Assembly (NCBI GenBank): GCA_000997385.1
Contig: LCBT01000001.1
Span: 177,493 to 241,492 of the forward strand
Direction of reading: 5' to 3'
Source: Candidatus Daviesbacteria bacterium GW2011_GWA1_41_61
Lineage (GTDB): Bacteria > Patescibacteriota > Microgenomatia > Daviesbacterales > UBA10151
DNA length: 64,000 nt
Of the stretch, positions 9,850-52,523 are shown in pieces (the stretch's first letter is position 1; every line of letters starts with the position of its first letter). Below the pieces are notes generated by a model. The model was not told the origin of the DNA. It saw nothing but the letters and a program-made list of their open reading frames with translations, and searched no databases. Position numbers and translations under genes: made by a program.

Positions 9850-9852
9850 TTT

Positions 9853-15513: not shown

Positions 15514-15522
15514 CGCGAGGTT

Positions 15523-19513: not shown

Positions 19514-19525
19514 TGGTTACATTAT

Positions 19526-21422: not shown

Positions 21423-21431
21423 CCTGCTTTT

Positions 21432-26237: not shown

Positions 26238-26288
26238 CCTAACCCCTTTATGGTAACAATTTAAAATCTTGAAGTAAATGAGCTCCGA

Positions 26289-27743: not shown

Positions 27744-27747
27744 TTAC

Positions 27748-29277
27748 TTATTTTAAAGGAATCTCTCCTACCACCAGCCATCTCCATATAAACGGAAAAC
27801 GTAGAGATGACAGAAATGTTGATGGTACTATTGGGCAAGTCTTACTCTCACAATCCAATTCAAAAGCGTTATAAATATATACCACGTTAAAATAAATACC
27901 TATCACAATGACACCAACAATAATAAGACGGCAAGCTTTATCTAACCACTTTTCTTCAAAGATAAATTTTGATAATGAAGGTAGCATTAAAGCTGAAAAA
28001 ATCAGCCTAAAATTAGTTGGATCAATATTGGGACGGAAAGGATTAACTAATAATAAACGGTTACCTAAAAGCAACCCAGCAGCTAAAAAAGTGGCAAAAA
28101 AATCTGCCCTTTTTACTAAGTACTGTAAACCCCAAGCCGTAAGGATGGCTAAAAAAGGAAAGGCTGGAAAACGATACCACGGCAGGAGATCTCCTTCCCC
28201 GCCTGAGATCATCACTACCATAATCCAATAAACAAAAGTCAAACTAATTAACCGTTTTAGACCATCTAAAGGAGAGAAAATAAAATAAGCTGCCGACAGA
28301 AGTCCAAAAACATACCAACTATCTTTGAATATGAGGGTACGGTAAGCAGGCGAGATAAAAAACCAAGCTAAAGAGTTAAATCCAACGGGACGATGAGATT
28401 GGGTGGAGGTGATTTGCCAAAAAATTTCCTGGTCAAAATGCAATCCATACCAAAAATAAAAAATGATGAAAGGTATTGTCCCAATAATTAAATAGAGACT
28501 AAAACGTAAAACTAGCTTTACTTTCTTTAACTTATACAGCACCATAAAAACTATAAACAACACCAAAGGCAATAAAAAATATCCAGTGGGTTTAGATAAA
28601 CCAGCTATTCCCACCAGCAAAGGTAATGGTAGTAAGTATAAAAATTTAGGCTGCTGGTAAAATTTTAAAAGCAGATAAGTGGTGAGAGTTAAAAGAAAGG
28701 CAATAAGATTCTCCGGCATAGCAGATCTCGAGGCAAAAACTAAAATTGGAGTTGTTCCAAAAATGAGCATCGCTAAAATTCCCGTCCCAAAACCGCTGAC
28801 TAATCTTCCAATTAAAAAAATCATCACCGAAGTAAACCCAGCCAGCAAAACTACCGGCATTCTAATATAAGATGAAGGTACAAAATCAGTCTTTTCCGCT
28901 TTATAAAAGTGAGCAAAAGCCCCTACTAAAAGAGAAAAACCAGGTGGTTCATCTAGCCAGGGCTTATATAAAGTCACACTGGCCTCAGGTATCCCTCCTT
29001 TGTAAGAAATCTTGCCTTTAAAAACTTGCGCCCTCTTGGGGTAGTCAAGAGTAGACCAGGAAACCGGTACCCCCTCTTCAATAAGATAAAGCCCGGACCA
29101 GGCATAGAGCATTTCATCTAAATGATTAGCGGTGGGAACACGGTCATAGTTATGGGACCGCAGAATGAAAGTAAATACAAAAACCAGCAAAAATACAATC
29201 AGACGGAAGGTTGATGAAGATATCAGCTCTATACCAATTTTCCACAGCCCAACTTTCCTCAGATGCTCAAACCTCAT
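27748..29277 (-). CDS. GT-C membrane glycosyltransferase (ArnT/PMT-like)
   Basis: 509 aa polytopic. ANHLDEMLYAWSGLYLIEEGVPVSWSTLDY first-loop DE motif. Confidence 0.5.
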   Translation of the reverse strand: MRFEHLRKVGLWKIGIELISSSTFRLIVFLLVFVFTFILRSHNYDRVPTANHLDEMLYAWSGLYLIEEGVPVSWSTLDYPKRAQVFKGKISYKGGIPEASVTLYKPWLDEPPGFSLLVGAFAHFYKAEKTDFVPSSYIRMPVVLLAGFTSVMIFLIGRLVSGFGTGILAMLIFGTTPILVFASRSAMPENLIAFLLTLTTYLLLKFYQQPKFLYLLPLPLLVGIAGLSKPTGYFLLPLVLFIVFMVLYKLKKVKLVLRFSLYLIIGTIPFIIFYFWYGLHFDQEIFWQITSTQSHRPVGFNSLAWFFISPAYRTLIFKDSWYVFGLLSAAYFIFSPLDGLKRLISLTFVYWIMVVMISGGEGDLLPWYRFPAFPFLAILTAWGLQYLVKRADFFATFLAAGLLLGNRLLLVNPFRPNIDPTNFRLIFSALMLPSLSKFIFEEKWLDKACRLIIVGVIVIGIYFNVVYIYNAFELDCESKTCPIVPSTFLSSLRFPFIWRWLVVGEIPLK

Positions 29278-36355: not shown

Positions 36356-38080
36356 TTAAAATTCTGATGAAGCGGTTACAAAGGCTGGAAGGGCGTCTAG
36401 CCCCTTATGAAGCTGGTAATTATCTAAACTCTTTGCTTCCTCTGGTGATCCGATAAACAATACTTTTTTATTTAATCCCCCAATAAAACTTTCAATTTCA
36501 CTCTCCGGGATATGACCGATGTAAACATTATCAATCCTTTTAAATTCATACTTTCCTAATCTGTCTCTTTGCTTATTTTGAGCAATAATAATGCTCGGAT
36601 CTGTTTGGGAATAAACCGGGTAGGCGTATTCAATGTTATCAATTCTGTCCGATACTAAAACGTAATCAAAGTTGTCCTTGTTTGACATTATATATTGGGC
36701 GGCGATTTTGGCAGGAAAAGACCAAAATCTGCTTAATTCATTAGATGTTAAAAAAAATATCCTGTTAATAAAAAATGTAAATTGAATGAAAAAGATAAAT
36801 ACCACTGTCCAAAGTAAAAATTTCATTCCCTTTTCTTTCCTGTGACTTACCAAAACGTAAAGTCCTGTCGCCGAAAAGATTATCAGCGGAGGAAGCATTA
36901 AAGAGCTCCTTAATGCATGAGGTTCCAGCATCAGTGCTGCCGGGAGAGGAGCTATTAGAAGCCATCCCAAAAGTAAAATAAGTAATCGTCTATTACTTAA
37001 AGCAATAAACGCTAAACCTATTACCAACAGAACAATCTCTATTAAGTAAAGCTGCCCCATTAAAGACATATTGTGGCGGGGATTTCTATCGCCATGGATA
37101 AAAAGAAAATCTAAAGAAAAATGTGATAAATATCCTTCGCCAATCAAGAGGCTGTTTTCAATATATTTATTATGAAAAAGCGGCAAAAGGTATACCGGCA
37201 TAGAACTAACCGCTCTCTCCCCGTTTATTTTCTGCACAATCTTTTCTTGCAGTTCCTGCTGTCCAAAAATATTAATAGCTAAAAATCTCTTGTCGGATCC
37301 GGTGGTAGTAGATTGAACTGCAACCAATGAAAATCCTACTAACAAAATTAAAGCGGAAATAATTACCGGTAATAGATATTTACCCTGCAGATACTGTCTC
37401 AAATTTCCGGAAGTAAAAATTAGCACTAACAAGATTAAAGGAATTGTTAATTTATAGGTCGGATAAGTATGAACAGCGATGGAAAAACAGATTGCAAAAA
37501 TGACTAACAGCCACGGTTGGAATTTTGATTTAATGAACCCTCTCTCCGATCTAAAGATCGAAGTTTCGGGTTCTTGTCTTGCGACAATAAAAGTAAAAAT
37601 TCCTAAAACAGATAAAAACAAAGCAAAATGGGTTTCATAGCCTCCCCGGCTTAAATTTATATCCCATGGTGATAAGGCCGCAAACAAAGCGGTGATGGCA
37701 GCAACTTTTTCATCAAACCAATGTCTTGATAATAAATATAAAACTATGACAATTCCTAATCCGGAAATAATTGACAGCATCCTTACTCCTGGGGCCGAAG
37801 GCCCAAAGAGGGAGACGAAGGGGATGGAAAAATAGACGTATCCGGCAGGACGTCCCCCGCTCATTTTAAAAGTCAGAGGAAGGAAATCTCCAAGCTGATC
37901 GTGCCCTGTTTTGAGAACAGAATAAGTATCATAAACTGTCGTCAACTCGTCTCCATACAAAGCCGGAGGACTGCCGGAGATATTAACAATCCTTAAAAGA
38001 GCGGCCAAAAGTAAAATTAACCATAAATAAAGTTTAATTTGTAATATTTTTCTATTTAAAAGATTTTTAATTATTTTCAT
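36356..38080 (-). CDS. GT39/GT83-like GT-C glycosyltransferase
   Basis: 574 aa. ALYGDELTTVYDTYSVLKTGHDQLGDFLPLTFK, a DE-motif variant. The C-terminal soluble domain resembles that of the WDE paralogs. Confidence 0.6.
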   Translation of the reverse strand: MKIIKNLLNRKILQIKLYLWLILLLAALLRIVNISGSPPALYGDELTTVYDTYSVLKTGHDQLGDFLPLTFKMSGGRPAGYVYFSIPFVSLFGPSAPGVRMLSIISGLGIVIVLYLLSRHWFDEKVAAITALFAALSPWDINLSRGGYETHFALFLSVLGIFTFIVARQEPETSIFRSERGFIKSKFQPWLLVIFAICFSIAVHTYPTYKLTIPLILLVLIFTSGNLRQYLQGKYLLPVIISALILLVGFSLVAVQSTTTGSDKRFLAINIFGQQELQEKIVQKINGERAVSSMPVYLLPLFHNKYIENSLLIGEGYLSHFSLDFLFIHGDRNPRHNMSLMGQLYLIEIVLLVIGLAFIALSNRRLLILLLGWLLIAPLPAALMLEPHALRSSLMLPPLIIFSATGLYVLVSHRKEKGMKFLLWTVVFIFFIQFTFFINRIFFLTSNELSRFWSFPAKIAAQYIMSNKDNFDYVLVSDRIDNIEYAYPVYSQTDPSIIIAQNKQRDRLGKYEFKRIDNVYIGHIPESEIESFIGGLNKKVLFIGSPEEAKSLDNYQLHKGLDALPAFVTASSEF

Positions 38081-40068
38081 TTAGATACCCTTTGATATAT
38101 CTTTACATTTTGGGAATTATAGATCTCCTTTAAGTCAAGATCTCTAACATCCGCGGCAAACTTTTGTCCCCAAACCAAATAAACATAATCAATTTTGTAT
38201 TTACCAAGAAACTGGTTAATATTGTCCGCAGATTTATCTCCAAAAATAAGTTTCCTTTCTTCAAACAAACTGTCTGCTTTGTAACCCATAATATCAACCT
38301 GTTCTTGGTCGGCAGCCCAGGTTCTTCTTCCTGAAAAAGCGGAGATGTAACCTGTATCATACCAGGAGTAAATTGGCACAGGAGGATAATATTTATCTCT
38401 TTCATACTTATTAAATGGCGCTGTTAAAATAATTGAGTTTTCAGTTGAATTTTCTCTTAAAGACTCCAGAGCCTTTACCTCTTCAAAAGTAACCTTCGAC
38501 AATGGTTGGTTAGAATAAAACTGCCAGAGCAAGCCGATCTGAGTAGGTACAGCTAAAACCATAATAATAAGGCTAAAAAAAAACTTAGCATAAGATGATT
38601 TAATTTTAGCAATTAAGATCGAGGCGCTTACTGCTGCCAGAAAGCCAAAAAATAATAAAAAATACTGATTATATTGAATAACGTTCCAGGCAACTCCTTT
38701 TTGGACAAACAAAACCGGAAGCAAAAATGAAGCAGCTGTAACTGACAGAAAGAATAAGTTAAACGGGTGTTTAAAAATATTCCCTTTTAAATACTGCCCC
38801 ACTGCCAAAAATCCTAAAAACCTCATCCCCAAGTTTCCGAATAAAAATATTAGCAGCGCTGTTGTTTCCAATTGGATAACTCTTTTGATATTACCCTCTG
38901 ATAAATAAGTCTGGCGTCTTAACTCCATATCAAGCCAATTTAATCTATCCGGAACCACTACCATAGTCCTGATAAACCACCACGGCTGCCAAACTAAAAA
39001 TTCCTGGGAGCTTTCATTGTTGGGAAGATAAAGGATTAAAGCCGCTACCAGAGTAGTAAAAAAAAGTAATAGTGTTTTAAAGTACCTTTTACTGAGGATC
39101 TCCCATAAACCAACTATCAGTAATCCCCCTAATATCAATGTACCGGCATAAACTTTAAACTCAATAACCGTACCTCCCAAAAGTGCAGTTAGTAAAAACA
39201 GGTTATTTGTTCTATTTTGTAGGTACTTGTAAAAAAAATACAAAAAGGCAGTCAGTATAATAAAAGCTGAGGCATGAGGAGGGTTTCCTAATACCGATTG
39301 AGTTTGAGAAACCCAGAAAATAGCTTCGCCGTTTAAATTGCCGTAACGAGGCAGAGTTAATAAATAACCAAAACTGCCGGCAAAGTAAGTAAAAATCATC
39401 GCCCAAATACCGGCAGAAAAACTTTTTGACCAAAGGCGAACAAAAATAAAACTGCCCAGCCCCAACAGAAGAGAAAATAAAACCGGTATGAATCGGAAAT
39501 AGATATCAAAACTGGAAAATCTAAACAGCCGACCCATTTCCGACATTAGCAAATCAACAAAAAAATGATAGTTTTGCAACTTGTGACCGGCATATTCAGG
39601 GTTTTGGAAAGGAAAAACATTACTCTTCATCTCTTCCATTAAGGCAACATGCCAAATCCCATCATGACCATGAGAGCTCCAGAAATAATAACCTTCCGAG
39701 TAAGGAAAACCTGAGGGGGCATTGACTACCACCTGACCTGTTACACCGACCGCAAGAACAGTCAGGAAAATGATTACTGTTTTTTTAGGGTAATTAAAAT
39801 TAAACCGAAACAGCTCTTTTCTGAATTTAAAAAATATGACTAATCCCGCCAAGGGAATCACCCACATTAAAAACCGAAGGTTAAATACGGCTAAAATATA
39901 TGCCAGTAAAGTAAAGACAACCAAACCGACAACTGTAGACAAAGTATATTTTTCTAAAATTGATAGCGGGGAAACCTTCAAAAGTTTAATTATACCGAAA
40001 CCAAGCGCCGTAAAAATTACTAAGCTCAGGGCTAAAAACAATAAACCAAAGATAATTTGGATAAACAT
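38077..40068 (-). CDS. polytopic membrane protein, uncharacterised GT-C-like family (HDGIWH motif); paralog of the C-terminal half of 40071..43550
   Basis: 663 aa. HGHDGIWHVALMEEMKSNVFPFQNPEYAGHKLQNYHFFVDLL. About 13 TM helices and a C-terminal soluble domain. Confidence 0.45.
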   Translation of the reverse strand: MFIQIIFGLLFLALSLVIFTALGFGIIKLLKVSPLSILEKYTLSTVVGLVVFTLLAYILAVFNLRFLMWVIPLAGLVIFFKFRKELFRFNFNYPKKTVIIFLTVLAVGVTGQVVVNAPSGFPYSEGYYFWSSHGHDGIWHVALMEEMKSNVFPFQNPEYAGHKLQNYHFFVDLLMSEMGRLFRFSSFDIYFRFIPVLFSLLLGLGSFIFVRLWSKSFSAGIWAMIFTYFAGSFGYLLTLPRYGNLNGEAIFWVSQTQSVLGNPPHASAFIILTAFLYFFYKYLQNRTNNLFLLTALLGGTVIEFKVYAGTLILGGLLIVGLWEILSKRYFKTLLLFFTTLVAALILYLPNNESSQEFLVWQPWWFIRTMVVVPDRLNWLDMELRRQTYLSEGNIKRVIQLETTALLIFLFGNLGMRFLGFLAVGQYLKGNIFKHPFNLFFLSVTAASFLLPVLFVQKGVAWNVIQYNQYFLLFFGFLAAVSASILIAKIKSSYAKFFFSLIIMVLAVPTQIGLLWQFYSNQPLSKVTFEEVKALESLRENSTENSIILTAPFNKYERDKYYPPVPIYSWYDTGYISAFSGRRTWAADQEQVDIMGYKADSLFEERKLIFGDKSADNINQFLGKYKIDYVYLVWGQKFAADVRDLDLKEIYNSQNVKIYQRVSK

Positions 40069-40070
40069 CT

Positions 40071-43000
40071 CTATTTTAAAACTTCATAAATATCAACTTC
40101 GCGATTATTATAAATATGATCTAATCGTAACTTCTCTTTATCTAAAAAACTATTAAATATTTTTGGCAAGTAAATATACTTTATATTACTATCATTTAAA
40201 AATTTTCTCGACCACTCGGCATCTTTACCCCTAAAGAAATCCTGGGCCGAAACCAAACGTTTTTTATAATCATTTTGGAAAATCTCCTGCTGTATTTCAT
40301 CCTCTAGAAAAGTGGTTTTACCGGAAAAAGCTGATACATAGGAAGTGGTTTCATAGGCAAACAAAGGATAGGGCGCTTGAAATTTTTTTCTCAGGTTTTC
40401 ATCATAAGGATAAGTTACAACTACCCCATCAGGCTGCTTTTGAAGCCATTCTAAAGCTTCCAGCTCAGCAAAGCCTATACCAGAAGGTGGTTGTCCCTCA
40501 AAAGAACTTTTAAAGGTAGCAGCGCTACTGATTGGGGTAATAAGTAAGATAGCTGCCACTAAAGAGAAAGTAGTGATTCTAAAATAGTTATTACCAATTA
40601 GGTTCATTTTTCGTATAACATAGACAATAGTGACCGCAGAGGCCAAAGCAGTAAAATATAATAGATAGTAGAAAAACTGGATAGAATTCCAGTTATTTCC
40701 CTTCTGGATAAAAAGCAAAGGAATAACCAAAGAGAAAATGGATAACAAAAATATTAAGGAAAATTCTAAATTCTTCCAAATTTTTCTCTTTAAAAATGAT
40801 CCCACCACTCCAAAAGATAAAAATCTAGTCCCTAAATTCCCCACAATAAACAATCCTAAAGCCAAAGCTTCACTTGTAATAAATTTCAGCCATTCTCCTC
40901 TTTCAAAATAGGCCACTCTTGCCTGTGACAACTTAAGCCATCCTACCCTGTCGGAAAAATCAACCATCGAATGGACAAACCAAAAAGGAGAAAAGACTAA
41001 AAGCCCTCCCGCTCCACTGTTTTGAGGTAAAAAAACCACTAAAGAAAGTGCCGCTGAAGCAATAAAAACTAACAACAAAAATTTTTTCTTGGCAAAAATT
41101 AATTGCTGCAGGGAGATTAAGAATAAACTACCCAGCACTAAAAGTCCGGCATAAACTTTAAACTCAATAAGTGATCCAACCAACAAAACTAAGATCAGGC
41201 AGGTAATTTTACTACCTTGGTTAACTAAATGTCTAAAAAGCAAGACAATGGCTACCATCAATACTAGGGAAATGGCAAAGGGAGGGTTGAGGTTAAAAGA
41301 CACCGGCTGGTTAACCCAAAAAGTTGATTCTCCACCCCAGCTTTTACTTTTCAAATATTCCACAATCCAACCGAAACTCCCACCAAAATAAACAAAATAC
41401 AAAGAGGTTAAGGTTATTAACTTATTTTTAAATAACCGCGTCACTAAAAGGTAAGTACCTAAACCTAATAATAAAGAAAGTAGCAGCGGATAAAACCGGT
41501 ACAAAAGGTCTAATATCGGCACAGTAGAAATTTTGTTAGTCTGGGCCACTAATAGATCATAAAAATAATGGTAATTGTTTAATAATGTCCCTGAAAATGC
41601 TGGATTTTGAGGAGGAATCTCTTTGACTAACTGATTAACCAAGGCCTGATGCCAGATACCGTCATGTCCTGTTGGTCCTTGAAAGCCGATACCAAAATCA
41701 TAAACCCACCCGGAACGCATCATCCCCAAAGACTGAAAAATTATTCCCCCAATTATTATTGCGCCAGTTATTAAATAGCTTGGGGAAAGTATTTTCTTTA
41801 ATTGGCCAGTTACATCTACTTCTAGATAAACTCTCTTGATAAAAAAAACTGCTAAGGTTAAAAAAGGATAGATAAAGATTAACCATCCTAATTTCAGATA
41901 ACCTAGCAGATAGGAAAGTAAGGTGAGTAACACAAATCCTAAACAAATAGAGATGAATAATTTAAACATTGAGGACTCACTTTGAAGATACCGGGCAAGT
42001 AAAAATCCGGGAATAAATAAAACTCCTATCACAAAGAGCGCAAATTTTATAAACTGCCAGGATAAATTGACAGTTACACCGACAATATCGACAGACCGTT
42101 TATCCGTCAAACCTAAAGATCGGTAATCTGTACTTTCTTGGGAGTTAATAGCCTGAAGGATCAGCCCATCAATTGAAGATACTTTGCCGTCTATATCAAT
42201 ATCCCGGGGTAAAAATTTCACCTCTTTTCTTCTTCCTGCCTCATTAGTGTAACTTAAAAGATACTCCTCCCCGAATTTTTTAATATCTAAACCACTAATT
42301 TTACCTTCATCTAAAACTAATCTTCTGCCGTAAGTCACATCATCTAAAACCCGGGTGGGGAAAGTGGCAAAATTTAACTGCTGACAAGATTTTAAAAGAC
42401 AAATTTCCTCTTGCCCCTCCACATATTGGCGGATATCCCGAAATAAGCTGCCATCCTTATTATAAAACCAACCAGCCCGGTAATAAGGATTCATAAACCA
42501 GACTGATTTTTGGGATGATTCTTTAGGATCATCAGCGATAATAATCTGTTCTGGAGAAATATCAGGAAATTGTTCCTTGTACCACTTAGCAAAGTCACTC
42601 ATAATAACAAGTTTTAATTGACCTGATTGTCTTTTACTGGCTAAAAATTTCATCTGTTGGCTATACTCTGGACCGTATTTTGGCCAAGAATAAGAATTTT
42701 CTAGTCCTACCACCACCTGATTTACCTGGTTAAATTTCTGATTGGTATAAAGATCGATCAACTTAGAAAAATAATTTATATCTAAATTGTGATAATCGAT
42801 ATAATCGTTGGCCTGAAGGCTATAAGTGCTTTCTTGCACTCCATCACCATAACCGTTAATCGGATCACGAGAGGCCCATTGCATCATCACCACTGGTAAT
42901 TTGCTATCTTTGTTCTGGGCTGGAAATAAAGCATTAACCTTAGAAGGGTAATATGGAGTGGACCAATATTGTCCCCAGATTTGATAATTATCAGTAGTAT

Positions 43001-43550
43001 ATTGATCGGCTACAATTAAGGCTGCCTCAATTTGGTATTTTTTTTCCATATAATCCAGAGAATAAGCATCAATCCACCAAGCCCCAACAGACTTAGGATA
43101 AAAACCAAAAACATTTTTGAAGTTACCAAAAGCGCTGTCAATTAATTTTTCCCTTTCAGCTATCTCATAACCGATCAAAAAGACACTGCCCGCATAATGC
43201 CAGCTTTCTGACTGACGGTAACTGACTCCAGCTTCCTTGTTCCAATTGGGGGTTATCTCTAAAAAGAGGCCAACCTCATCAGCAGGAGACGCTGATTTGA
43301 CTATCTTGACTAAATCTGGATCTTTTAAAACATCAAAACGGACCAGCCAAGTGGCAGGAATATTTTGCTGCCTTAAAATTTCCATTTGCCCCAAAATAGC
43401 CTCAGAAGGTTTTTGATCTTCCATCTCCCAAAAGTCCGATCCCCGGACAGGATTTACTACTGAAACAAAGGAGTTATTTTGAGCCTCAACTAAATCCGTG
43501 TTCATTAAAAACAATAAAGATATGATTAAAAAAACTAAATATTTAACCAC
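40071..43550 (-). CDS. large fusion protein: signal peptide, ~480 aa extracytoplasmic domain of unknown function, then GT-C-like polytopic membrane domain (HDGIWH family)
   Basis: 1159 aa. N-terminus MVKYLVFLIISLLFLMNTDLVEAQ is a signal peptide. The C-terminal domain has GHDGIWHQALVNQLVKEIPPQNPAFSGTLLNNYHYFYDLL, matching the adjacent 663 aa gene. Confidence 0.5.
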   Translation of the reverse strand: MVKYLVFLIISLLFLMNTDLVEAQNNSFVSVVNPVRGSDFWEMEDQKPSEAILGQMEILRQQNIPATWLVRFDVLKDPDLVKIVKSASPADEVGLFLEITPNWNKEAGVSYRQSESWHYAGSVFLIGYEIAEREKLIDSAFGNFKNVFGFYPKSVGAWWIDAYSLDYMEKKYQIEAALIVADQYTTDNYQIWGQYWSTPYYPSKVNALFPAQNKDSKLPVVMMQWASRDPINGYGDGVQESTYSLQANDYIDYHNLDINYFSKLIDLYTNQKFNQVNQVVVGLENSYSWPKYGPEYSQQMKFLASKRQSGQLKLVIMSDFAKWYKEQFPDISPEQIIIADDPKESSQKSVWFMNPYYRAGWFYNKDGSLFRDIRQYVEGQEEICLLKSCQQLNFATFPTRVLDDVTYGRRLVLDEGKISGLDIKKFGEEYLLSYTNEAGRRKEVKFLPRDIDIDGKVSSIDGLILQAINSQESTDYRSLGLTDKRSVDIVGVTVNLSWQFIKFALFVIGVLFIPGFLLARYLQSESSMFKLFISICLGFVLLTLLSYLLGYLKLGWLIFIYPFLTLAVFFIKRVYLEVDVTGQLKKILSPSYLITGAIIIGGIIFQSLGMMRSGWVYDFGIGFQGPTGHDGIWHQALVNQLVKEIPPQNPAFSGTLLNNYHYFYDLLVAQTNKISTVPILDLLYRFYPLLLSLLLGLGTYLLVTRLFKNKLITLTSLYFVYFGGSFGWIVEYLKSKSWGGESTFWVNQPVSFNLNPPFAISLVLMVAIVLLFRHLVNQGSKITCLILVLLVGSLIEFKVYAGLLVLGSLFLISLQQLIFAKKKFLLLVFIASAALSLVVFLPQNSGAGGLLVFSPFWFVHSMVDFSDRVGWLKLSQARVAYFERGEWLKFITSEALALGLFIVGNLGTRFLSFGVVGSFLKRKIWKNLEFSLIFLLSIFSLVIPLLFIQKGNNWNSIQFFYYLLYFTALASAVTIVYVIRKMNLIGNNYFRITTFSLVAAILLITPISSAATFKSSFEGQPPSGIGFAELEALEWLQKQPDGVVVTYPYDENLRKKFQAPYPLFAYETTSYVSAFSGKTTFLEDEIQQEIFQNDYKKRLVSAQDFFRGKDAEWSRKFLNDSNIKYIYLPKIFNSFLDKEKLRLDHIYNNREVDIYEVLK

Positions 43551-44991
43551 TTTTAAGACTCCTCAGATCAGCTAATAATACTTTCCCCTTAAAAGAAATG
43601 ACTAAAGCATAAACTATAATCCCTAAAGTGACAGCTAATATCAGAGTAAAAACGTCCCGGACAAAATTTTGGGCAAATAAGTAAACAGTGCCAGCCATAA
43701 CTGACGAGGCCACCACTGGCCAGGCTAGAGCGTTTAAAACCCGCACCACTAAAACTCTTTTTACTAAGATAACGGGCAGGAGGGAGGTAAAAGATATCAC
43801 AAATGAAGCCAAAGCCACACCCAGATATCCATATTTTAAAACTAACAGCGGGGTTAAGACCCAAGTAGAAACCGTCCACAAAATCATCAATTTTAAAGTC
43901 GTCTTAATATGCCCAATGGCATTTAAGGTATTGGTAAAGGTAGTTGAGATAACCGCCCAAAAGGTGGAAAAAGCAAAAAAGTAAAAACCGAGTAGTGCTG
44001 GCTGCCACTTAGAAGAGATAACGTAGGTGACTAAAGAAGGCAAAATTGCTGCCAGCCCAAACAACGCTGGATAAACCAGCAGAGCAGTAACAAAAAGTGA
44101 TTTTTCCACAGCCCGGCCTAAATTGTCTTTATTCCCCTGTAATCTGGAAAAGGCCGGAAAAGAGATCCGGATAATAATATTCATCATCTCTAAAGGCAAA
44201 AAGGCCATATTTTGAGCCCAAGTGATAAAACCTATTCCCAATGGTCCAACCATCCCCGCCACCACCAAGGGAACTAATCTATCCTTCACCAAAGCTAGCA
44301 AGCTGTTAGCCTGAAAAGGCAAACCAAAGGTTAAAAGTTTTTTGGCGGCGGTTTTTTCGATTCCTAAGCTTAACTTTACCGGAGCCAAAATATAAATCAG
44401 TGAGGTGCCACTCAATCCTCTGGCTAAAGCAGCGATGGAAAAGCTCCAAATTCCTAAGTTAGCTAAAACAGTAATAATCAGCAACCCGTTAAAAATTAAG
44501 GTTTCGACGATTTCTACCGCCACTAAAGGCTGAAACCTTAGCTCCCTCTCCAATAAGACTGCCGGCACTACTTTTAAAGATGATAGCAAAAACGATATTC
44601 CTAACACCCGTACCAACCAAACACCGGCCTCATCTAAACTATAAATCTGGCCAATGAGGGGGGCTCCCAAAATAACTATTAAGCTTATACTGAGCACTAA
44701 AAGCTGCTGGATAGTAAAGACTGTTTTAATATCATCTTGGGTAATATCTTCTTTCTTTTGAATCAAGGAAGCAGCAAGTCCAATATCAGAAAAAAAAGCC
44801 AAAAAGACAATCACTGCAGTAGCAATATTAAAAATACCTAAAGTTTCTACCGGCAGAGTTCTGGCTAAAATAACATTTAAGGTAACAAAACTAATAGCCC
44901 GCAGGGCTATTTGCCGGGCTGTCAAACTCATAAACGAAGAGGCAGCTCTCTTTTTAATCTCTGATAAAGATAAAGATTGTCCTTCTTTCAT
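43543..44991 (-). CDS. Wzx-like flippase (MOP superfamily polysaccharide biosynthesis protein)
   Basis: 482 aa with about 12-14 TM helices. The N-terminus (ARQIALRAISFVTLNVILARTLPVETLGIFNIATAVIVF) is typical of Wzx/MATE-like flippases. Confidence 0.6.
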   Translation of the reverse strand: MKEGQSLSLSEIKKRAASSFMSLTARQIALRAISFVTLNVILARTLPVETLGIFNIATAVIVFLAFFSDIGLAASLIQKKEDITQDDIKTVFTIQQLLVLSISLIVILGAPLIGQIYSLDEAGVWLVRVLGISFLLSSLKVVPAVLLERELRFQPLVAVEIVETLIFNGLLIITVLANLGIWSFSIAALARGLSGTSLIYILAPVKLSLGIEKTAAKKLLTFGLPFQANSLLALVKDRLVPLVVAGMVGPLGIGFITWAQNMAFLPLEMMNIIIRISFPAFSRLQGNKDNLGRAVEKSLFVTALLVYPALFGLAAILPSLVTYVISSKWQPALLGFYFFAFSTFWAVISTTFTNTLNAIGHIKTTLKLMILWTVSTWVLTPLLVLKYGYLGVALASFVISFTSLLPVILVKRVLVVRVLNALAWPVVASSVMAGTVYLFAQNFVRDVFTLILAVTLGIIVYALVISFKGKVLLADLRSLKSG

Positions 44992-44994
44992 AAT

Positions 44995-46233
44995 TTATCT
45001 AAATAAACCATTTAAGTAATAAGACAACCAACGGCGTAGCGGCTGTATTTGAACTATCACTCCAGCCAAATATAGAAAAAAGCCCAAACCTGTTGCTAAG
45101 TTAGCTAAATCTCTGACAGGAGTATCAAACAGCCTAGCCTCAACATTGTGCTTGCCTGGCCCCAAGATAAAAGTAATGAGTCCCAAGCTGTTATCCTTAT
45201 AGCTTATCTCTGCCTCTTTGCCGTCAACTAAAACTCTCCAGTTTGGAAAATAGAATTGTGACAGCCTGATAATAGAGTGCGTTTTAGTCTCAGTTTTAAA
45301 AGAGATCCAATTAGTGCCAGACTGATAGTCTGCAATTTGAGATTCTCCCGTTAAGACCTGATAGCGGGGGATTGTTGGCTTGACTGAAGATTCTTCAACT
45401 GAAGACGGCAAAAAATCTGCTCCTGACCGCTCAATCCGATAGATGTATCCTAAGCCACTTTCACCAGAACGGACATAATCTCGTTCTAAAATTAGGGGTA
45501 CAATATAAAAAGAAGCCAGTAGTAAGCTTAACACTAAAGAAGCCAGGCTTAATTTGAACAGTTTAAAATTTGAGTGTAACGAAAATTTCAAGCTCTGCTT
45601 AAAATCCCTTCTGCTTAAAAGAGTGGATAGAAGAAACACCACCGAGGCCGGCAAAAATAACATTGCGATAATATGATGAGAAAGAACCGATATTGCTGCA
45701 ACTAAAGATAATATTAAAACACTACCTTCGGCAGGGATACAAATCAAACGCCTTAAAGCCCACACTAAAGCCGGAATCAAAGCTAATACCGCGATTTCCC
45801 CTAAAGAACCGGTTCCTCCATAGATTACTACTGCAGAGGACACCAAACTATAAAAAATGCCCAGAAAAACCTTTTTCTTAGCAGTCCAAAATTTTGGGGC
45901 CATCAGATAGACAAAAAGATAAGCCACCAAACCAAAAAGAGAAAAGGTAACTCTGACTGCTAAAAGAAAGCTGTGGGTAAGAAGATAGCCCGCTTCCCCC
46001 AGATAATAAGGCAAAGGCGCGTAGTAATTAAATAGGGGATAACCGTACATTTGACCTAAATCAGGAACCCAGCGGCAGGGGATCTGACCATCGCGCAGGC
46101 ATTTATCGATCTGATAAACCCGCATGGTCTGATTGTAGCTGGTTTTAATAAAATAAGGAGAAAAGGTCAAAGCCAAAAACAACACCAAAGTGAATAAAAA
46201 TCCTATCAAAAAAGATCTGTTTTTAAGCATCAT
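44995..46233 (-). CDS. polytopic membrane protein, QIPCRWVPD...FNYY family (paralog 1 of 4); putative GT-C-type
   Basis: I place the start at the internal Met (MMLKNRSF), because the ORF-track start overlaps the upstream gene by 86 nt. Motif: MRVYQIDKCLRDGQIPCRWVPDLGQMYGYPLFNYYAPLPYYLGE. Confidence 0.45.
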   Translation of the reverse strand: MMLKNRSFLIGFLFTLVLFLALTFSPYFIKTSYNQTMRVYQIDKCLRDGQIPCRWVPDLGQMYGYPLFNYYAPLPYYLGEAGYLLTHSFLLAVRVTFSLFGLVAYLFVYLMAPKFWTAKKKVFLGIFYSLVSSAVVIYGGTGSLGEIAVLALIPALVWALRRLICIPAEGSVLILSLVAAISVLSHHIIAMLFLPASVVFLLSTLLSRRDFKQSLKFSLHSNFKLFKLSLASLVLSLLLASFYIVPLILERDYVRSGESGLGYIYRIERSGADFLPSSVEESSVKPTIPRYQVLTGESQIADYQSGTNWISFKTETKTHSIIRLSQFYFPNWRVLVDGKEAEISYKDNSLGLITFILGPGKHNVEARLFDTPVRDLANLATGLGFFLYLAGVIVQIQPLRRWLSYYLNGLFR

Positions 46234-46237
46234 CGAA

Positions 46238-47494
46238 TTAAGAATCGGCTTTCTTGGGAAAAAAATGATAGATAAAATACAACGCCCCTCCGGCAAATCC
46301 GGTCTGAAGCAGACTGCGGGCAAAATTATAATCCGGGTTAATACTTAAAATCTTCCAGATTGATGGGGAATTATAAAGAGAGCTGTTAAGTGGTGAAAAA
46401 AGTCCCAATGATAACCCGGGATCAAAGAAAAAAATCATTCCCGCAAAAGTGACCATCATAATGGCAGCCGGAAGGATAGATAAAGATGCTTCTTTCACTA
46501 AGCTTAGTATTATAAAGGGTGCCAGCCATAAAAACCACTGGGGATGGAAATGGGTAAAGATAAAGAAGGGTATCAAGGCGATAAAAAAGCGTTGCCAGAG
46601 ATTCTCTACTCGAGCCGGGATGGTTAACATTACTAAGTAGAGAAAGGTCAGTAATATTAAAAAAAGGAAGATGGCTTCACCGCCGGAAACGGCTATTTGA
46701 GGGTATAAACTTTTAAGAGTTTGGTTGGCTACTAAAGCTGTAGAGCGAAAACCGAAAGAGTGAATAAAAGGTAAAATAGTCACAAGATATGGCAGCAAAC
46801 CTAAAGTCACCACACCGACTCTTTCCTTCCAACTAGTAGCTAAGGAGGCTAAAGGGATTAAAAAGAAAAGAGGATAAATCTTAAAGGAAGCTCCAGCACC
46901 CAAAAGCAGCGCACTCAACAGTAAATTCTTAAGCCCCCTCCCCTTTTGCCTTAGTACCAGATATAAAGCCAAGGTCGAAAAGAAAACGGGAATAACATCA
47001 AATTGGCCCATCATATAAGTAGCATAGAGATTGACCGGATTAAATATCCATAAAGTAAAGGCTAAAAATTTCTCTTTTGGTGAATCAAAAAACTTAGCCA
47101 GTAGAAAAGCCAGGGGAAGGTCAAAAAGAAGGTATGGAATTTTTAAGAGTAATAAATGTAGGTAAAGTTGTGATTGCCCTAAGACCTGTGCCACATCAAC
47201 TAGGAAGTTTAAATGGAAAGAAGGATTTATCCAACCTACGGTGAGCCAGCTAAAGCCTCCTAAGAAGAAATAAACCATGGGAGGATAGTTAAAAGGATAG
47301 GCAGGATAAGTCTTTACAATAGGATCACCCGCAGAAAGACCAGATACAAAATCATAAAAGTTTAAAAGATTACCCCCTCCGATAACATAACCTGCCAAAT
47401 CAAGGTGTCGGATATCGGAATGATAAGTGATGGCACCCAAAGTAAGGCGCAAAATCAAACCAACAGTTAATACTATCCAAAACTTTTGACTCAT
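46238..47494 (-). CDS. polytopic membrane protein, GT-C-like (DUF2029/GT87-like mannosyltransferase features)
   Basis: 418 aa. IFNPVNLYATYMMGQFDVIPVFF loop motif, about 11 TM helices. Confidence 0.4.
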   Translation of the reverse strand: MSQKFWIVLTVGLILRLTLGAITYHSDIRHLDLAGYVIGGGNLLNFYDFVSGLSAGDPIVKTYPAYPFNYPPMVYFFLGGFSWLTVGWINPSFHLNFLVDVAQVLGQSQLYLHLLLLKIPYLLFDLPLAFLLAKFFDSPKEKFLAFTLWIFNPVNLYATYMMGQFDVIPVFFSTLALYLVLRQKGRGLKNLLLSALLLGAGASFKIYPLFFLIPLASLATSWKERVGVVTLGLLPYLVTILPFIHSFGFRSTALVANQTLKSLYPQIAVSGGEAIFLFLILLTFLYLVMLTIPARVENLWQRFFIALIPFFIFTHFHPQWFLWLAPFIILSLVKEASLSILPAAIMMVTFAGMIFFFDPGLSLGLFSPLNSSLYNSPSIWKILSINPDYNFARSLLQTGFAGGALYFIYHFFPKKADS

Positions 47495-47502: not shown

Positions 47503-49197
47503 TTATAACTTAAATTTCTTAAAATGGGGATTTAAAATCCACCATAAAGCTAGCAGTAACCCTGATAAAGACATGATATCTAAAACCTTTTTAAAGTTGG
47601 TTTCAGTAAAACTAATTTTTACCTGATGCTCCCCGGGAGGGACTTTTAGAGTAATCTGGCCAAAGGGTTTCCCAGGGATAATAGCTGCTTGCTGCCCATC
47701 AATTTCTGCCTGCCAACCAGGAAAGAAATACTTATTGAAGTTAATTATCATTGGATTCAAAGCAGAAGTCTCAATTACAACATCAAGCTCACTTCTCTTA
47801 ATAATATTTTTAATGTCCCCGCCCTTGGCACTAACCAGGGGATAATTTTTATCGGGACGCAGTTGGGTATCTTTAGGCAGCCTAAAATATTCTTCTTGTA
47901 TCTGTAAATATTCTTCATTGGCTACTGGTACAGGAATATAGCGTTTCAGATAATAATCATCTCCTCTTCCTAAAAAATCTTCCGGCCGGAAATTACTAAT
48001 ATTTAAAACTATCACCAGCCCAATAAGGGTTGCCGTCATAATCTTAGGTCTTCCTAATTTACCTAAGGTCATGATTAAAAGAGGCGTTATAAAAGTCACC
48101 ATTATTAAAAACCTCCAAGGAAACTGAAAATAGGGGAGGAGGGGTAAATTTTGCCAAAGAGGAGACGAGCGGTGGTTCATCATCATTACAGAAACCGCTA
48201 AGACCAGATAAGCCCAGATCAAAACCACTTTTTCTCCGGGGGAAAACCTCCTCCAAGAAATCGCCAGGATTGGCACTCCTATAATTACTAAACCTAGGTT
48301 GATGGTCCCGATAAAGAAAGGCATCCCATCGTAAGGCCCTGGCACTGAAGCTCCATACCCCCAGTGAGGGGTAATTAGCTGCCTAAGTGTGGGAAAGTGA
48401 TCGACAAAATTAAAAACCGTATCGTATTTCATAAGAACACTTTCCACTATCGCCGGCAGCCAAAAGTAAAGGCTGATTAAAAGACCTAAGAAGACAGTTA
48501 ACATCAGCCCGACTAGACTGAACCATTTTTTAGTCTGTAAAAAGATTCTTAAAAACCCCAGTAAGAAAATAAAAGGCAAAAACATATAAGCGGTGATATT
48601 GTGCGACAGCACTAGGGAAGAGAAGGCCACCCCCCCAATACCCAGCCAACGGTAATTAATCCGTTTAGAATTTTCCACTGATGTCAACTTCACCACTGAT
48701 AAGGCAACCAGGGGTAAGATCGCAAAGGAGACTATCTCCCCGATGGCCCCCCGAATATAGAGATCCACTGCCCGGTAAGGGGTGTAAACATAGATTAAAG
48801 CTCCGGCTAAAGCAAGCCCGCGGTTTTTAACTAACTCTTTAAGCAACCAATACATTCCCAAAGCAGACAAGATAATACTTATAAAAAAGACAGCCTTAAT
48901 ACTATCTACCAACCCTAGACTTAAAAGATGAAAAATTTCTGCTATATAAAAGGGTAAGGGGAATAAAAAATTAAACAAAGGGTAGCTAAAACCAAAACTT
49001 AAATCAGGGGCCAGGCGGGGAGGAATTTGTCCCATGGAAATCGCCCGGTCCATCTGATGAAACCAGCCAATATGCATATCATCGGAAGCTCCATAAAAAC
49101 CAGGCACTAAAAGGGCCCATCCTGCAGGTAATGATAATAAAATCACCCAAACCCAAGTTTTAGTGAAAAATTCTTTGACGTTTTCCATACCAGGCAA
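47503..49197 (-). CDS. polytopic membrane protein, QIP..W.PD family (paralog 2 of 4, divergent motif QIPPRLAPD)
   Basis: 564 aa. ASDDMHIGWFHQMDRAISMGQIPPRLAPDLSFGFSYPLFNFLFPLPFYIAE. The start may instead be the internal Met at 49188. Confidence 0.5.
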   Translation of the reverse strand: MPGMENVKEFFTKTWVWVILLSLPAGWALLVPGFYGASDDMHIGWFHQMDRAISMGQIPPRLAPDLSFGFSYPLFNFLFPLPFYIAEIFHLLSLGLVDSIKAVFFISIILSALGMYWLLKELVKNRGLALAGALIYVYTPYRAVDLYIRGAIGEIVSFAILPLVALSVVKLTSVENSKRINYRWLGIGGVAFSSLVLSHNITAYMFLPFIFLLGFLRIFLQTKKWFSLVGLMLTVFLGLLISLYFWLPAIVESVLMKYDTVFNFVDHFPTLRQLITPHWGYGASVPGPYDGMPFFIGTINLGLVIIGVPILAISWRRFSPGEKVVLIWAYLVLAVSVMMMNHRSSPLWQNLPLLPYFQFPWRFLIMVTFITPLLIMTLGKLGRPKIMTATLIGLVIVLNISNFRPEDFLGRGDDYYLKRYIPVPVANEEYLQIQEEYFRLPKDTQLRPDKNYPLVSAKGGDIKNIIKRSELDVVIETSALNPMIINFNKYFFPGWQAEIDGQQAAIIPGKPFGQITLKVPPGEHQVKISFTETNFKKVLDIMSLSGLLLALWWILNPHFKKFKL

Positions 49198-50848
49198 CTC
49201 CCCCGGTTATCAAAAGTGAAATCAATGTTATTATATTACCCAAGTTTCTAATTGGGGTATTCGTTAATTTCCCAGCCACTTGATATTCTCCGGGCTGTAA
49301 ATCAATCATCACCCGGCCCATTAAATTATCATGAGAGTAGGGAAACTTTTGTCCATTGACTGTCACTTGCCACACCGGAAAATCAAAAACCGGTATTTCC
49401 ACCACTGCTTTCTCAGAAACATTTATGGAAAAATTCCAGCGGTTGGAGCGGTTGTCAAAATCTCCCAATGTAACTTGACCGGACACAATGATTGGTCTGT
49501 TAGGAGCTCTCTCTTGAGGTTCATAGGCTGTTTTGGGAAGGTAATCCAAAATGCTGGCTTTTTGCTGAGTCTCCCACATCTCTCCTGACAACTTTTTCCG
49601 GTCAGTCAGTGTTGGGAAAAAGTGCTCCGGTTTAAAAAAACTCCAATTTAAGGCCATGGTGGAAACTATTATTAAAACCAGTACCACTTTTTTGGCCCGA
49701 CCTGCCAGGATCAATATAAGGGCTCCTCCCAAAAGGCTGGCAGAAAAAATAGCCAGTGACAGGAAACGCCAGGGGAATTGAAAGAAGCGCAAAAGGCCGA
49801 TGGCTTCCCAGACAAAAGCTGATCTATTATGGGTCATAAAAACTGACATTAAAAATGCTAAGGCCAGCAGGATGATTAAGATGAAACCTCTGGCCGGCAG
49901 CTTGTTTAAAAAATCTTTTTTAACCAGCCAACCTAAAAGACCTAAAACTACCGCTGCCGGCACTAGCCACCAATGAGGCCAACCGATTTGAAAAGACAAA
50001 CTATCAAAAGGACCGGGGATTGAAGCCCCATACCCGAAGCTGCGGTCAAAAAACAGCTGCCCGACAGTTACAAAATGCGCCCTAAAATTTAAATCCATTC
50101 TGGTTAAAGTGTCTGTTCGTACTAAAGAAGTTTCCACAAAGGCCGGCAGAAGAAAAAAAGAGGCCAGACCAAAACCTAAAAGTAAACTGAAAACTGTTGT
50201 CTTAAGGTGAGCCCATTTTTGAATCCATAAAAACAAGACCCCCCAGATAAAAATTACCGGCACAAAAAGCAAGGTCATAATATTGTGGGTAGTTAAAAAA
50301 GCTGCCGAGGACAAACTTAAGCCTAAAAAATTTCTTTGGGAGGGCTTTTTGATAAGTCTCAGCAGAAAGTAAAAAACCAGCGGGATTAAAGCCAAAGCAA
50401 AACTTTCTGCCACTGCTCCCCGCACATAAGCGTCTAAAGCCCGGTAAGGAGCAAAAAGGTACAAAGCAGCAGCTGTAATACCGCTTAATCTCCCCCACAG
50501 TTGCCTGGCTAAAAGATACATCGTGACTCCCCCAGCCACCAAGGGAATTAAAAATAAAGCTTTGGCTGCGCCCAGATAGCCTAAAATATAGCTTAAGATT
50601 GCACCCAAATAGTAAGGGAAAACACTATAGTAGTTAAACAACGGGAAGCCGTTACCATACCCCATATCAGGTACCCACCGGCAGGGGATCTGCAGATCTT
50701 CCAGACACTTTCTCATCTCAAAAATCCTCATCACCTGCAGATCGTCATGGTGAGAAAAAAACCCCGGCAAAAACAAGGGCCAACTGACCAAAACAAAGGA
50801 CAGGGTAAAGAAAATTACCAACCAATATTTAGCGATGATTTTTAGCAT
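49160..50848 (-). CDS. polytopic membrane protein, QIPCRWVPD family (paralog 3 of 4)
   Basis: 562 aa. SHHDDLQVMRIFEMRKCLEDLQIPCRWVPDMGYGNGFPLFNYYSVFPYYLG. Confidence 0.5.
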   Translation of the reverse strand: MLKIIAKYWLVIFFTLSFVLVSWPLFLPGFFSHHDDLQVMRIFEMRKCLEDLQIPCRWVPDMGYGNGFPLFNYYSVFPYYLGAILSYILGYLGAAKALFLIPLVAGGVTMYLLARQLWGRLSGITAAALYLFAPYRALDAYVRGAVAESFALALIPLVFYFLLRLIKKPSQRNFLGLSLSSAAFLTTHNIMTLLFVPVIFIWGVLFLWIQKWAHLKTTVFSLLLGFGLASFFLLPAFVETSLVRTDTLTRMDLNFRAHFVTVGQLFFDRSFGYGASIPGPFDSLSFQIGWPHWWLVPAAVVLGLLGWLVKKDFLNKLPARGFILIILLALAFLMSVFMTHNRSAFVWEAIGLLRFFQFPWRFLSLAIFSASLLGGALILILAGRAKKVVLVLIIVSTMALNWSFFKPEHFFPTLTDRKKLSGEMWETQQKASILDYLPKTAYEPQERAPNRPIIVSGQVTLGDFDNRSNRWNFSINVSEKAVVEIPVFDFPVWQVTVNGQKFPYSHDNLMGRVMIDLQPGEYQVAGKLTNTPIRNLGNIITLISLLITGGVAWYGKRQRIFH

Positions 50849-52523
50849 GTTTTCGGCTTAAAAAAATTAATACTCCTAAAACTATTATACTAGTTAGGGT
50901 AATTAAATTACCGATCATTCTAACCGGAGTATTATTTAATCTAGCCTCTAAAATATGCTGGCCGGCAGGAATTTTAAAAGTAATCAACCCCAAGCAAAAT
51001 TCCTGACCCCGGCAGTCATTGTTCCAGTGAGTAATTTTTTGATTATCCACCTTCACCTCCATACCGGGAAAATCATATAAAGGGAGTCTTATTAAAGATA
51101 GTTCCCCTGCTGTAAGTACTCCTTTTTGAAAATTACTTCCTTTTTGATAACTGGAAAAGCTTACCTGGCCTTCTAAAACCTCAGGTTGCAATGGAGCCTT
51201 AGAGGTTGGAGGCAAAGTAGCATAAATGGGCAGGTAATCAAAGATGCTGATGGTTAACTGTTTTTCCCAGGATTTACCGGAAAATTTATCAGCATCGGAA
51301 ATATCATACCACTGGTAAGGTTTAAAAAACCCTCCATAGAAAACCATAACAGCAGCTATTAAGGCTACCCCTAAGACTTTGGCCAACTTTACTTGAGGAA
51401 TCAGATAAACAGCTAAGGCTCCCAGAAGTGATAATAAAAAGATGCTGTCTGCCAGTATCCTCCAGGGAAACTGCAGCCAGGTTAACATACTCAAATGTTC
51501 CCAGATAAAGGTGGATTTTTGATGGATTAAAAATAACACCAACAGATCAACTACAGCCAAGGTTAAAATAACTAAGGACAACTTTTTTTGCTTGCGGAAG
51601 TTTAAAACCCCTAAAGCAACCGCCAAAAGACCTGCTGCCCAGTGGATTACTCCGGTAGTCATCGATAAATCATCTCCCGAACCCAGGTAGGAGGAACCAT
51701 AGCCAAAATGGTTGGATAAAAACAGTTGTTCTAAATTTACAAAGTGCTGGCGGTAGTCAAAATATCCGGAAAGCATGGAATCAATATGAACATAAGGTTT
51801 TTCCAAAAGAACCGGCAGGGTAAAAGTAGCTGCCAGCCCTATCCCTAAGACTCCTCCCAGTATTAGCTTTGTTAAAACCTGCCATCTCTTTTCTAAAATT
51901 AACCACAAAAGTGCCCACACTCCGGCAATAGGCAAAAAGATCATGGACATTAAGTTGTGGGTAAAAAGCAGCAGCCCGATAGATAACCCCATCCAGGCTA
52001 AATATTTTACAAAGCCTTTTTTAATCAGCTGGTAGATTGACCAAAAAATTACCGGGAAAAAGACGAAGGCCCAAAATTCACTCAAAGCTCCCCTGACATA
52101 AACATCTACAGCCTTATAAGGGGCATAAGTGTAAAGTATGGCTCCAACCAAAGCCGGCCAGGAACCTAAAAGAGAACGAAGAAAAATAAACATTGTTATA
52201 GCAGAAAAGATAAAACCTAAAATAAACAGTATTTTGACAGCATCGATAAATTGGAATCCTACTAAATTAAAAATCTCTCCCAGATAATAAACACTGGGGG
52301 GGTAATAGATAAACTGGGGGTAACCATATTGGTAACCGGCATCAGGCACCCATCTACAAGGAATTTGCAGATCCTGGATGCATTTATCCAATTGATGGAT
52401 CCTGAAAGCCTGCAGGTCATCCTGCATCCAAAAAAACCCCGGACGAAGTAGTGTATAAAAAGTAGGGATAATTAATAAAATTAAGGCTACTAAAAACTTA
52501 TTACTCTTGAACCAAATAACCAT
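50829..52523 (-). CDS. polytopic membrane protein, QIPCRWVPD family (paralog 4 of 4)
   Basis: 564 aa. WMQDDLQAFRIHQLDKCIQDLQIPCRWVPDAGYQYGYPQFIYYPPSVYYLGE. Confidence 0.5.
   Translation of the reverse strand: MVIWFKSNKFLVALILLIIPTFYTLLRPGFFWMQDDLQAFRIHQLDKCIQDLQIPCRWVPDAGYQYGYPQFIYYPPSVYYLGEIFNLVGFQFIDAVKILFILGFIFSAITMFIFLRSLLGSWPALVGAILYTYAPYKAVDVYVRGALSEFWAFVFFPVIFWSIYQLIKKGFVKYLAWMGLSIGLLLFTHNLMSMIFLPIAGVWALLWLILEKRWQVLTKLILGGVLGIGLAATFTLPVLLEKPYVHIDSMLSGYFDYRQHFVNLEQLFLSNHFGYGSSYLGSGDDLSMTTGVIHWAAGLLAVALGVLNFRKQKKLSLVILTLAVVDLLVLFLIHQKSTFIWEHLSMLTWLQFPWRILADSIFLLSLLGALAVYLIPQVKLAKVLGVALIAAVMVFYGGFFKPYQWYDISDADKFSGKSWEKQLTISIFDYLPIYATLPPTSKAPLQPEVLEGQVSFSSYQKGSNFQKGVLTAGELSLIRLPLYDFPGMEVKVDNQKITHWNNDCRGQEFCLGLITFKIPAGQHILEARLNNTPVRMIGNLITLTSIIVLGVLIFLSRKHAKNHR

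Follow-up and report, generated by a model that had tools for sequence, protein, structure and literature searches.

A predicted oligosaccharyltransferase-like GT-C protein with a fused, secreted DUF3863-like domain in Candidatus Daviesbacteria

Does the gene at positions 40071..43550 (minus strand) of a 64,000-nucleotide stretch from Candidatus Daviesbacteria bacterium GW2011_GWA1_41_61 (assembly GCA_000997385.1, contig LCBT01000001.1, positions 177,493 to 241,492; the whole stretch is called the window here) encode one genuine protein, and what might such a protein do? Enzymes of the GT-C type assemble a cell's outer glycans, for which they use lipid-linked donors, and their oligosaccharyltransferase (OST) branch underlies N-glycosylation and glycoengineering. 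An earlier sequence-only reading of the window had described the gene as a secreted domain fused to a GT-C-like membrane domain, adjacent to a stand-alone paralogue of the latter. We found that the product of 1159 amino acids (aa) is one real polypeptide with four modules, which are listed below in the order of the protein. As far as we found, the combination of an OST-like GT-C protein with a fused DUF3863 domain, a partner paralogue and a flippase is undescribed.

40071..43550, minus strand: whole fusion gene, with signal peptide, DUF3863-like domain, GT-C(A) membrane core and OST-like C-terminal unit; clade A paralogue
43482..43550, minus strand: signal peptide, residues 1-23, read from the sequence (hydrophobic segment 5-23)
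42561..43481, minus strand: extracytoplasmic 7-stranded beta/alpha barrel, residues 24-330, from the model (boundary to the sandwich approximate)
42141..42560, minus strand: beta-sandwich subdomain of the DUF3863-like module, residues 331-470 (strands 335-459 in the model)
41784..42086, minus strand: three extra N-terminal transmembrane (TM) helices, residues 489-589 (helices 489-519, 527-551 and 560-587 in the model)
40500..41783, minus strand: GT-C(A) core of ~11 TM helices, residues 590-1017, from the model
40074..40499, minus strand: C-terminal extracytoplasmic alpha/beta unit, residues 1018-1159, resembling the C-terminal core of OSTs, with YPYD where OSTs have WWDYG

The reading frame is open over 1159 codons and starts with GTG, with GGAG 8 nucleotides (nt) 5' of the start; its beginning runs over the stop of the preceding flippase gene, with an overlap of 8 nt. 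The protein opens with a Sec-type signal peptide (residues 1-23: MVK, a hydrophobic core, then VEA|Q), which is followed by a hydrophilic region (residues 24-470: W 2.8%, Y 6.6%, N 5.3%, D+E 13.3%, H 0.4%), in agreement with the signal peptide and the W/Y/N-rich domain that had been described from the letters. An AlphaFold2 model of the full-length protein, built from a 130-sequence alignment, reached a mean predicted local distance difference test score (pLDDT) of 93.1 and a predicted template modelling score of 0.84. Since the genes of this operon overlap by a few bases, single-base errors could fuse them (a possible origin of the still longer protein P0241 discussed below), and the 1159 aa frame might in principle be an assembly or frameshift artefact joining two genes, or its N-terminal half a disordered linker. 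We found no support for either; the sequence-only reading had named both as outcomes that could undo it. The same protein recurs in several independent groundwater Candidatus Daviesbacteria assemblies of the GW2011 type (11 contigs; one residue differs in one assembly), where it is annotated as 'hypothetical protein' (KKR80033.1 and others). A search with the membrane half returned 553 relatives; among the 120 best, 99 are fusions of 1116-1161 aa, and the remaining 21 are shorter, mostly ~650 aa, and lack the N-terminal domain (N domain). There are ~140 fused homologues altogether. The N-terminal part has 379 database relatives and is modelled at pLDDT > 90 as a 7-stranded beta/alpha barrel, of the glycoside-hydrolase/deacetylase superfamily, followed by a beta-sandwich. 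Both the artefact and the low-complexity linker were rejected on these grounds, and their probability is, in our judgement, negligible. Separately, at locus L034 (4308-9166) of Daviesbacteria GW2011_GWA2_42_7 both the fusion and its paralogue are split into several open reading frames (ORFs), either by frameshifts or assembly errors or by pseudogenisation.

The membrane domain (residues 489-1017) comprises 14 helices in the model, of which the first three precede an approximately 11-helix GT-C(A) core. These extra helices return the chain from the outside to the cytoplasmic side before the core begins; they are missing from 'short-form' relatives, which start at about position 95 of the profile. 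The K/R-rich loop 572-589, as read from the sequence, agrees with the positive-inside rule. As the helix number is even, the N domain, the first core loop and the C-terminal unit would all lie outside the cell. Two features of the core concern the predicted active site.

41517..41717, minus strand: first extracytoplasmic core loop, residues 612-678, from DSSP and conservation, with the HDGIWH and NYHYFYDLL motifs
41661..41663, minus strand: codon of D630, the predicted catalytic aspartate, from its place as first residue of helix 630-643 and from conservation

All GT-CA enzymes share TM helices 1-7, two juxtamembrane helices (JM1/JM2) and an essential aspartate at the tip of JM1 (PMC12041299). 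In the model, the core can be superposed on solved GT-C(A) enzymes, and two juxtamembrane helices (630-643 and 663-675) lie in the loop after the first core helix, between the TM segments 590-611 and 679-707. The conserved D630, which is the D of HDGIWH, is placed by the model at the tip of the first juxtamembrane helix. It is kept in at least 90% of the sequences of each of two paralogue clades (65 sequences), nearly invariant in one alignment (A1) and invariant in another (A3), and is predicted to be the catalytic aspartate. Other polar residues conserved across the family are H634, N649, Y660, H661, D665, R685, E741, K798, R868, R878, E894, R909, Q949 and N955. At the sequence level, the statement that the family has no place among the named glycosyltransferase families was confirmed: neither paralogue matched a Pfam or NCBIfam model at E <= 0.1, the PMT_2/PMT models (GT39/GT83) gave no match at that threshold either, and hhalign comparison of the membrane-domain profile with the PMT_2, PTPS_related and YfhO proteins of the window gave probabilities all below 1% (0.5% for PMT_2). 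Thus, the family cannot be linked by sequence to these GT-C families, and the choice between a PTPS-related and an ArnT-like membrane domain, which had been suggested as a check, fell out in favour of neither. One UniRef record labels the paralogue 'Glycosyltransferase RgtA/B/C/D-like domain-containing protein', so its GT-C nature had already been partly noticed by automatic annotation. Literature searches on GT-C enzymes in Patescibacteria and on OSTs in Microgenomates returned nothing relevant.

The best structural matches, both for the whole domain and for the C-terminal unit, are OSTs. The C-terminal globular domain, which was also modelled separately (pLDDT 91.9), has the fold of the OST core unit, and by its modelled structure we assign it to the kind found at the C-terminus of the oligosaccharyltransferases STT3, AglB and PglB. 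In OSTs, the WWDYG motif binds the +2 Ser/Thr of the sequon. The fusion protein has no WWD anywhere in its membrane or C-terminal part, and its sole WW is at residue 158 in the N domain; at the corresponding place after the first strand of the C-terminal unit, the family consensus reads VLTYPYDK, with variants of the form (V/L)-T-Y-P-Y/F-D/N. Since WWDYG is missing, a true N-glycosylation OST is not supported. The protein thus resembles STT3/AglB/PglB (GT66) in its GT-C(A) core and in the fold of its C-terminal unit, but differs from them in lacking both a sequence match to STT3 models and WWDYG. Moreover, OST catalytic subunits are described with 13 helices, whereas the fusion family has 14 (3 + 11), occurs as a pair of paralogues and carries the N-terminal DUF3863-like domain. 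The mycobacterial arabinofuranosyltransferases AftA (GT85) and AftD and the C-mannosyltransferase DPY19 (GT98) use polyprenyl-monophosphate monosaccharides; we detected no sequence similarity between them and the fusion family, and unlike the fusion protein none of them is fused to a domain of hydrolase or deacetylase fold. Taken at the level of fold, the fusion protein is a GT-C(A) protein that stands outside GT66/STT3, outside PMT_2/ArnT as far as the tests run here go, and outside the CE4 deacetylases.

The N domain had been regarded as belonging to no recognised family. This holds for Pfam, where a scan of the fusion protein matched no family and left DUF3863 (PF12979) below the gathering score, but not for more sensitive comparisons. 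A profile made from 53 N-domain relatives matches the DUF3863 structure 3lm3 in the PDB at E 1.1e-6, with a Q...D pair (Q183, D187) and a PYYPS segment common to both. The structural alignment with 3lm3, which agrees in fold, covers 360 of its 434 residues and, being longer than the barrel of ~300 residues, must reach beyond it. A weak match to DUF3863 was also seen in seven of the 53 relatives (best E 2.5e-4), and some database homologues carry a precomputed PF12979 label. By contrast, a phmmer search of the PDB with the full fusion protein gave only 3lm3 at E 1.1, and no OST; the link is significant only because a family profile was used instead of a single sequence. On this profile evidence, the N domain is a distant relative of DUF3863 and 3lm3. 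The distance is considerable, as 3lm3 (BDI_3119 of Parabacteroides distasonis, a 449-residue chain described as 'putative glycoside hydrolase/deacetylase') is only 16% identical to the N domain of the window and its deposited sequence has no GT-C part, whereas the DUF3863-like domain is here joined to a GT-C protein or, in relatives, to an OST-like C-terminal unit alone. Literature searches for DUF3863, 3LM3, BDI_3119 and PF12979 returned nothing relevant.

Among the 53 N-domain relatives, which are 35-50% identical, 36 columns are invariant. They include charged or polar residues after each barrel strand (R36, D73, E98, D161, Q183/D187, R228, E284), and such residues at the C-terminal ends of the strands are the pattern of an active-site pocket. 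In the model, the N domain accordingly carries a conserved carboxylate- and arginine-rich surface at these strand ends, which we predict to be a pocket. A polysaccharide deacetylase, which the sequence-only reading had proposed to test for, did not fit this pocket: the Asp-His-His metal triad and the catalytic motifs of CE4 (TFDD, H(S/T)xxH, LxH) are not found in the N domain, the end of beta1 reads NPVR, and only H118 of the two histidines in 457 residues is conserved. A metal-dependent deacetylase of the CE4 type was therefore rejected. Compared with CE4 deacetylases of the NodB fold (HP0310, PuuE-like, ArnD), the domain lacks both the triad and the catalytic histidine, and it is exported, whereas ArnD acts at the cytoplasmic face. 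Because the predicted site is rich in carboxylates, the domain would more probably trim the glycan, act as a transglycosylase or take off a substituent than carry out a metal-dependent de-N-acetylation. Alternatively, the domain might be no enzyme in this protein: it would bind glycan or wall and so position the acceptor, in a role comparable with that of the carbohydrate-binding modules in EmbC and AftD or of the MIR domain in PMT. We regard this as unlikely, since the invariant columns with acidic and basic residues after all seven strands form the pattern of a catalytic pocket rather than of a binding surface, and since Q183 and D187 are shared with 3lm3.

A further hint comes from proteins that have the N domain together with a homologue of the OST-like C-terminal unit and lack the membrane core. 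They make up 64 of the 120 best N-domain matches, have 0 or 2 membrane helices between the two parts and lie in a second conserved glycan cassette, again beside a MOP flippase. The joint occurrence of the two outer modules in proteins devoid of a membrane core suggests that they cooperate. Within the window, the cassette 13416-24591 (minus strand; PMT_2, PMT_2, GT2, GT4, PIG-V-like, flippase and others) is syntenic with the cassette of loci L041/L042 that carries such a protein (P0028, P0053). Roughly in its place, the window has a 558 aa multi-helix ORF (15523-17199) with no Pfam match; this ORF was rejected as the counterpart because it matches neither the N-domain nor the C-terminal-unit hidden Markov model (HMM).

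The second large element of the locus is the paralogue that follows the fusion gene.

38077..40068, minus strand: stand-alone clade B paralogue, 663 aa, with the same 14-helix core and C-terminal unit and no DUF3863-like domain

It starts 2 nt after the TAG of the fusion gene, in another frame. As claimed from the shared HDGIWH block, the two proteins are paralogous: a BLASTP alignment from residue 533 to the end of the fusion protein shows 34% identity over 630 aa (E 2e-94) and spans the HDGIWH...QNP...NYH.F.DLL block. In a neighbour-joining tree, 65 membrane domains taken from 38 loci fall into two deep clades, A and B. Clade A holds every fusion and some forms without the N domain, and clade B holds every stand-alone downstream paralogue including the 663 aa gene of the window. 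Likewise, clade-specific HMMs placed 141 of the 142 fusions that have the N domain in clade A; the exception is a truncated sequence with an ambiguous score. The form of locus L018 that lacks the N domain is nested among the clade A fusions, so the domain was lost at least once. The survey covered 40 related loci, three of them repeats of contigs already included, and about 31 of the 40 have one gene of each clade no more than 6 kb apart. In loci of the Daviesbacteria type, B follows directly after A in about 16 and lies within 4 kb in four more, and in loci of the Woesebacteria type a short A and a B are on opposite strands. The tree and this distribution indicate an ancient duplication. Duplication followed by acquisition of a domain, as the sequence-only reading had it, is consistent with these results, with the order of the two steps unproven, but the duplication was not a local event.

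Both clades keep the same conserved polar residues, so both paralogues look catalytically competent from their sequences; they may differ in their substrate-recognition modules, as the sequence-only reading proposed, or may equally be partners in one complex. The pair resembles Pmt1-Pmt2 and EmbA-EmbB, which are likewise two diverged paralogues with intact active-site residues kept together in genomes, although the sequence families differ. A K/T/I-rich ORF of 106 aa on the plus strand (39836-40156) runs antisense across the point where the two paralogues meet; it is almost certainly a spurious shadow ORF.

How far the family extends was seen in a profile search with the membrane domain that covered 1.84 billion representatives at 50% identity. 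It gave 1971 clusters at E <= 0.001, 973 of them at E <= 1e-30, and the N domain is present in 41 of the 150 best matches. All named sources of the relatives are MAGs (metagenome-assembled genomes) of Daviesbacteria, Woesebacteria, Microgenomates or Patescibacteria. There is one distant relative of the membrane domain in a Phycisphaerae MAG (L040, 27% identity), and a search for relatives outside the candidate phyla radiation that started from it found only four unnamed proteins. This analysis defines a large family, until now nameless, absent from the literature and covered by neither a Pfam nor an NCBIfam model. It is almost confined to Microgenomates/Patescibacteria, whose envelopes are essentially unknown and which cannot so far be cultured by themselves. 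Many third-party-annotation (TPA) MAG records entitled 'uncultured Gammaproteobacteria bacterium' hold the Patescibacteria-type cassette (L005, L007, L012-L016, L022, L025, L029, L032, L033, L035-L037, L039); their names appear to be placeholder or erroneous labels.

The third element is a flippase gene upstream of the fusion.

43543..44991, minus strand: MOP-superfamily flippase (Polysacc_synt_3, Pfam E 7.8e-51), overlapping the fusion gene by 8 nt

A Polysacc_synt_3 flippase is the immediate upstream neighbour of the fusion in 23 of 24 fusion loci, and it has this place in L001, L003 and L004. In the window, the flippase, fusion, paralogue and PMT_2 genes (36356-44991, minus strand) are separated by overlaps of 8 or 4 nt or by a gap of 2 nt, and this arrangement suggests that they are translationally coupled in one operon. 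Two genes upstream of the flippase is a conserved membrane ORF of 418 aa (46238-47494) with no Pfam match, whose counterparts in L001 and L003 lie directly upstream of the flippase.

From these elements, a mechanism can be proposed. The flippase would move an oligosaccharide linked to polyprenyl diphosphate to the outer face of the membrane, where the GT-C core, with D630 as base, would pass it en bloc to an acceptor outside the cytoplasm, which would be a wall polymer or a surface protein. A and B would cooperate, either in a heteromer of the Pmt1-Pmt2 or EmbA-EmbB sort or in two successive steps, and the DUF3863-like domain, proposed to lie next to the active site and, like it, outside, would process or hold the glycan. 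OST-like en bloc transfer by A and B from a diphosphate-linked donor, with processing of the glycan by the N domain, is the likeliest version in our view, at a little under an even chance. En bloc transfer is favoured by the OST-like core and C-terminal unit and by the Wzx-type flippase partner.

Several observations weigh against it. Flippases of the MOP/MATE type can also carry polyprenyl-monophosphate sugars (PMC11127046), so the adjacency of a flippase does not fix the donor, and we found no priming phosphoglycosyltransferase in the window; both points limit our confidence in en bloc transfer. Loci of the Woesebacteria type have the A/B pair with no adjacent flippase. The protein P0241 (1639 aa), in which a MOP flippase, a DUF3863-like domain and a GT-C domain are joined, would as a true triple fusion speak for the link to the flippase, but it is a lone example, and as its junction keeps a stretch resembling a signal peptide, it may be a read-through error at the overlapping stop and start.

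A monophosphate donor would fit the main rival, a system of three components in which A and B are ordinary GT-C enzymes: each would take one sugar from a polyprenyl-monophosphate sugar and attach it to a polymer or protein that has already been exported, thereby making two different linkages or serving two different sites. The donor would be made by one of the many GT2 enzymes of the surrounding island and flipped by the adjacent MOP protein, and the N domain would only hold or trim the acceptor. The capacity of MOP/MATE flippases for such donors allows for this system, but the flippase/A/B cassette has no GT2 gene as a regular companion (the closest ones are beside YfhO or PMT_2 genes), and the best matches of the whole domain and of the C-terminal unit are OSTs. 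Furthermore, Polysacc_synt_3 is a family of Wzx-type repeat-unit flippases. We therefore consider single-sugar decoration somewhat unlikely.

En bloc transfer can also be taken further. In that case, the flippase, A and B would form a glycan-assembly machine specific to the candidate phyla radiation, in which an OST-like GT-C heteromer joins flipped lipid-diphosphate-linked repeat units into a polymer or attaches them to surface proteins or the wall, with no enzyme of the Wzy/WaaL type and with an obligatory DUF3863 step. We regard this extension as improbable. If it were true, it would mean a new glycosyltransferase family, the first function for DUF3863 and a bacterial branch related to the OSTs of N-glycosylation that recognises its acceptor without WWDYG. 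Accessory outer domains and paralogue pairs have precedents among GT-C enzymes, so in kind the finding is not surprising. It provides a testable candidate for the attachment or polymerisation of surface glycans in Microgenomates/Patescibacteria, and a first functional context for DUF3863.

The operon is part of a glycan-assembly island of ~60 kb that makes up the window. The GT-C genes of the island number more than twelve (PMT_2, PTPS_related, YfhO, PIG-V-like); it also has many GT2 and GT4 genes, five radical-SAM genes and two MOP flippases. Three tandem membrane genes of ~562-564 aa (47503-52523, minus strand) lie upstream of the flippase of the operon; two of them match PTPS_related, one of these also weakly YfhO, and the third (47503-49197) has no Pfam match. 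Between them and the flippase is a fourth, shorter gene, which matches PTPS_related (44995-46323, minus strand). Five tandem GT-C genes of the PMT_2/PMT type (484-549 aa) are found at 21432-29277 (minus strand), followed by GT2, GT4 and PIG-V-like genes and the second MOP flippase (17064-18347). The five radical-SAM genes are consecutive (5298-11376, minus strand) beside GT2 genes, two of them with B12-binding domains (6320-7762 and 9853-11376), and may serve in sugar or lipid modification such as methylation or epimerisation. A 501 aa protein (58340-59845, minus strand) combines a MazG nucleotide pyrophosphohydrolase with a radical-SAM domain, a pairing that looked unusual to us. At 61734-62927 (minus strand), a GT2 domain is fused to a GtrA/DPMS TM domain; the product, which has an equivalent in L004 (56-1249), may be a polyprenyl-phosphate sugar synthase that carries its own flippase-like module.

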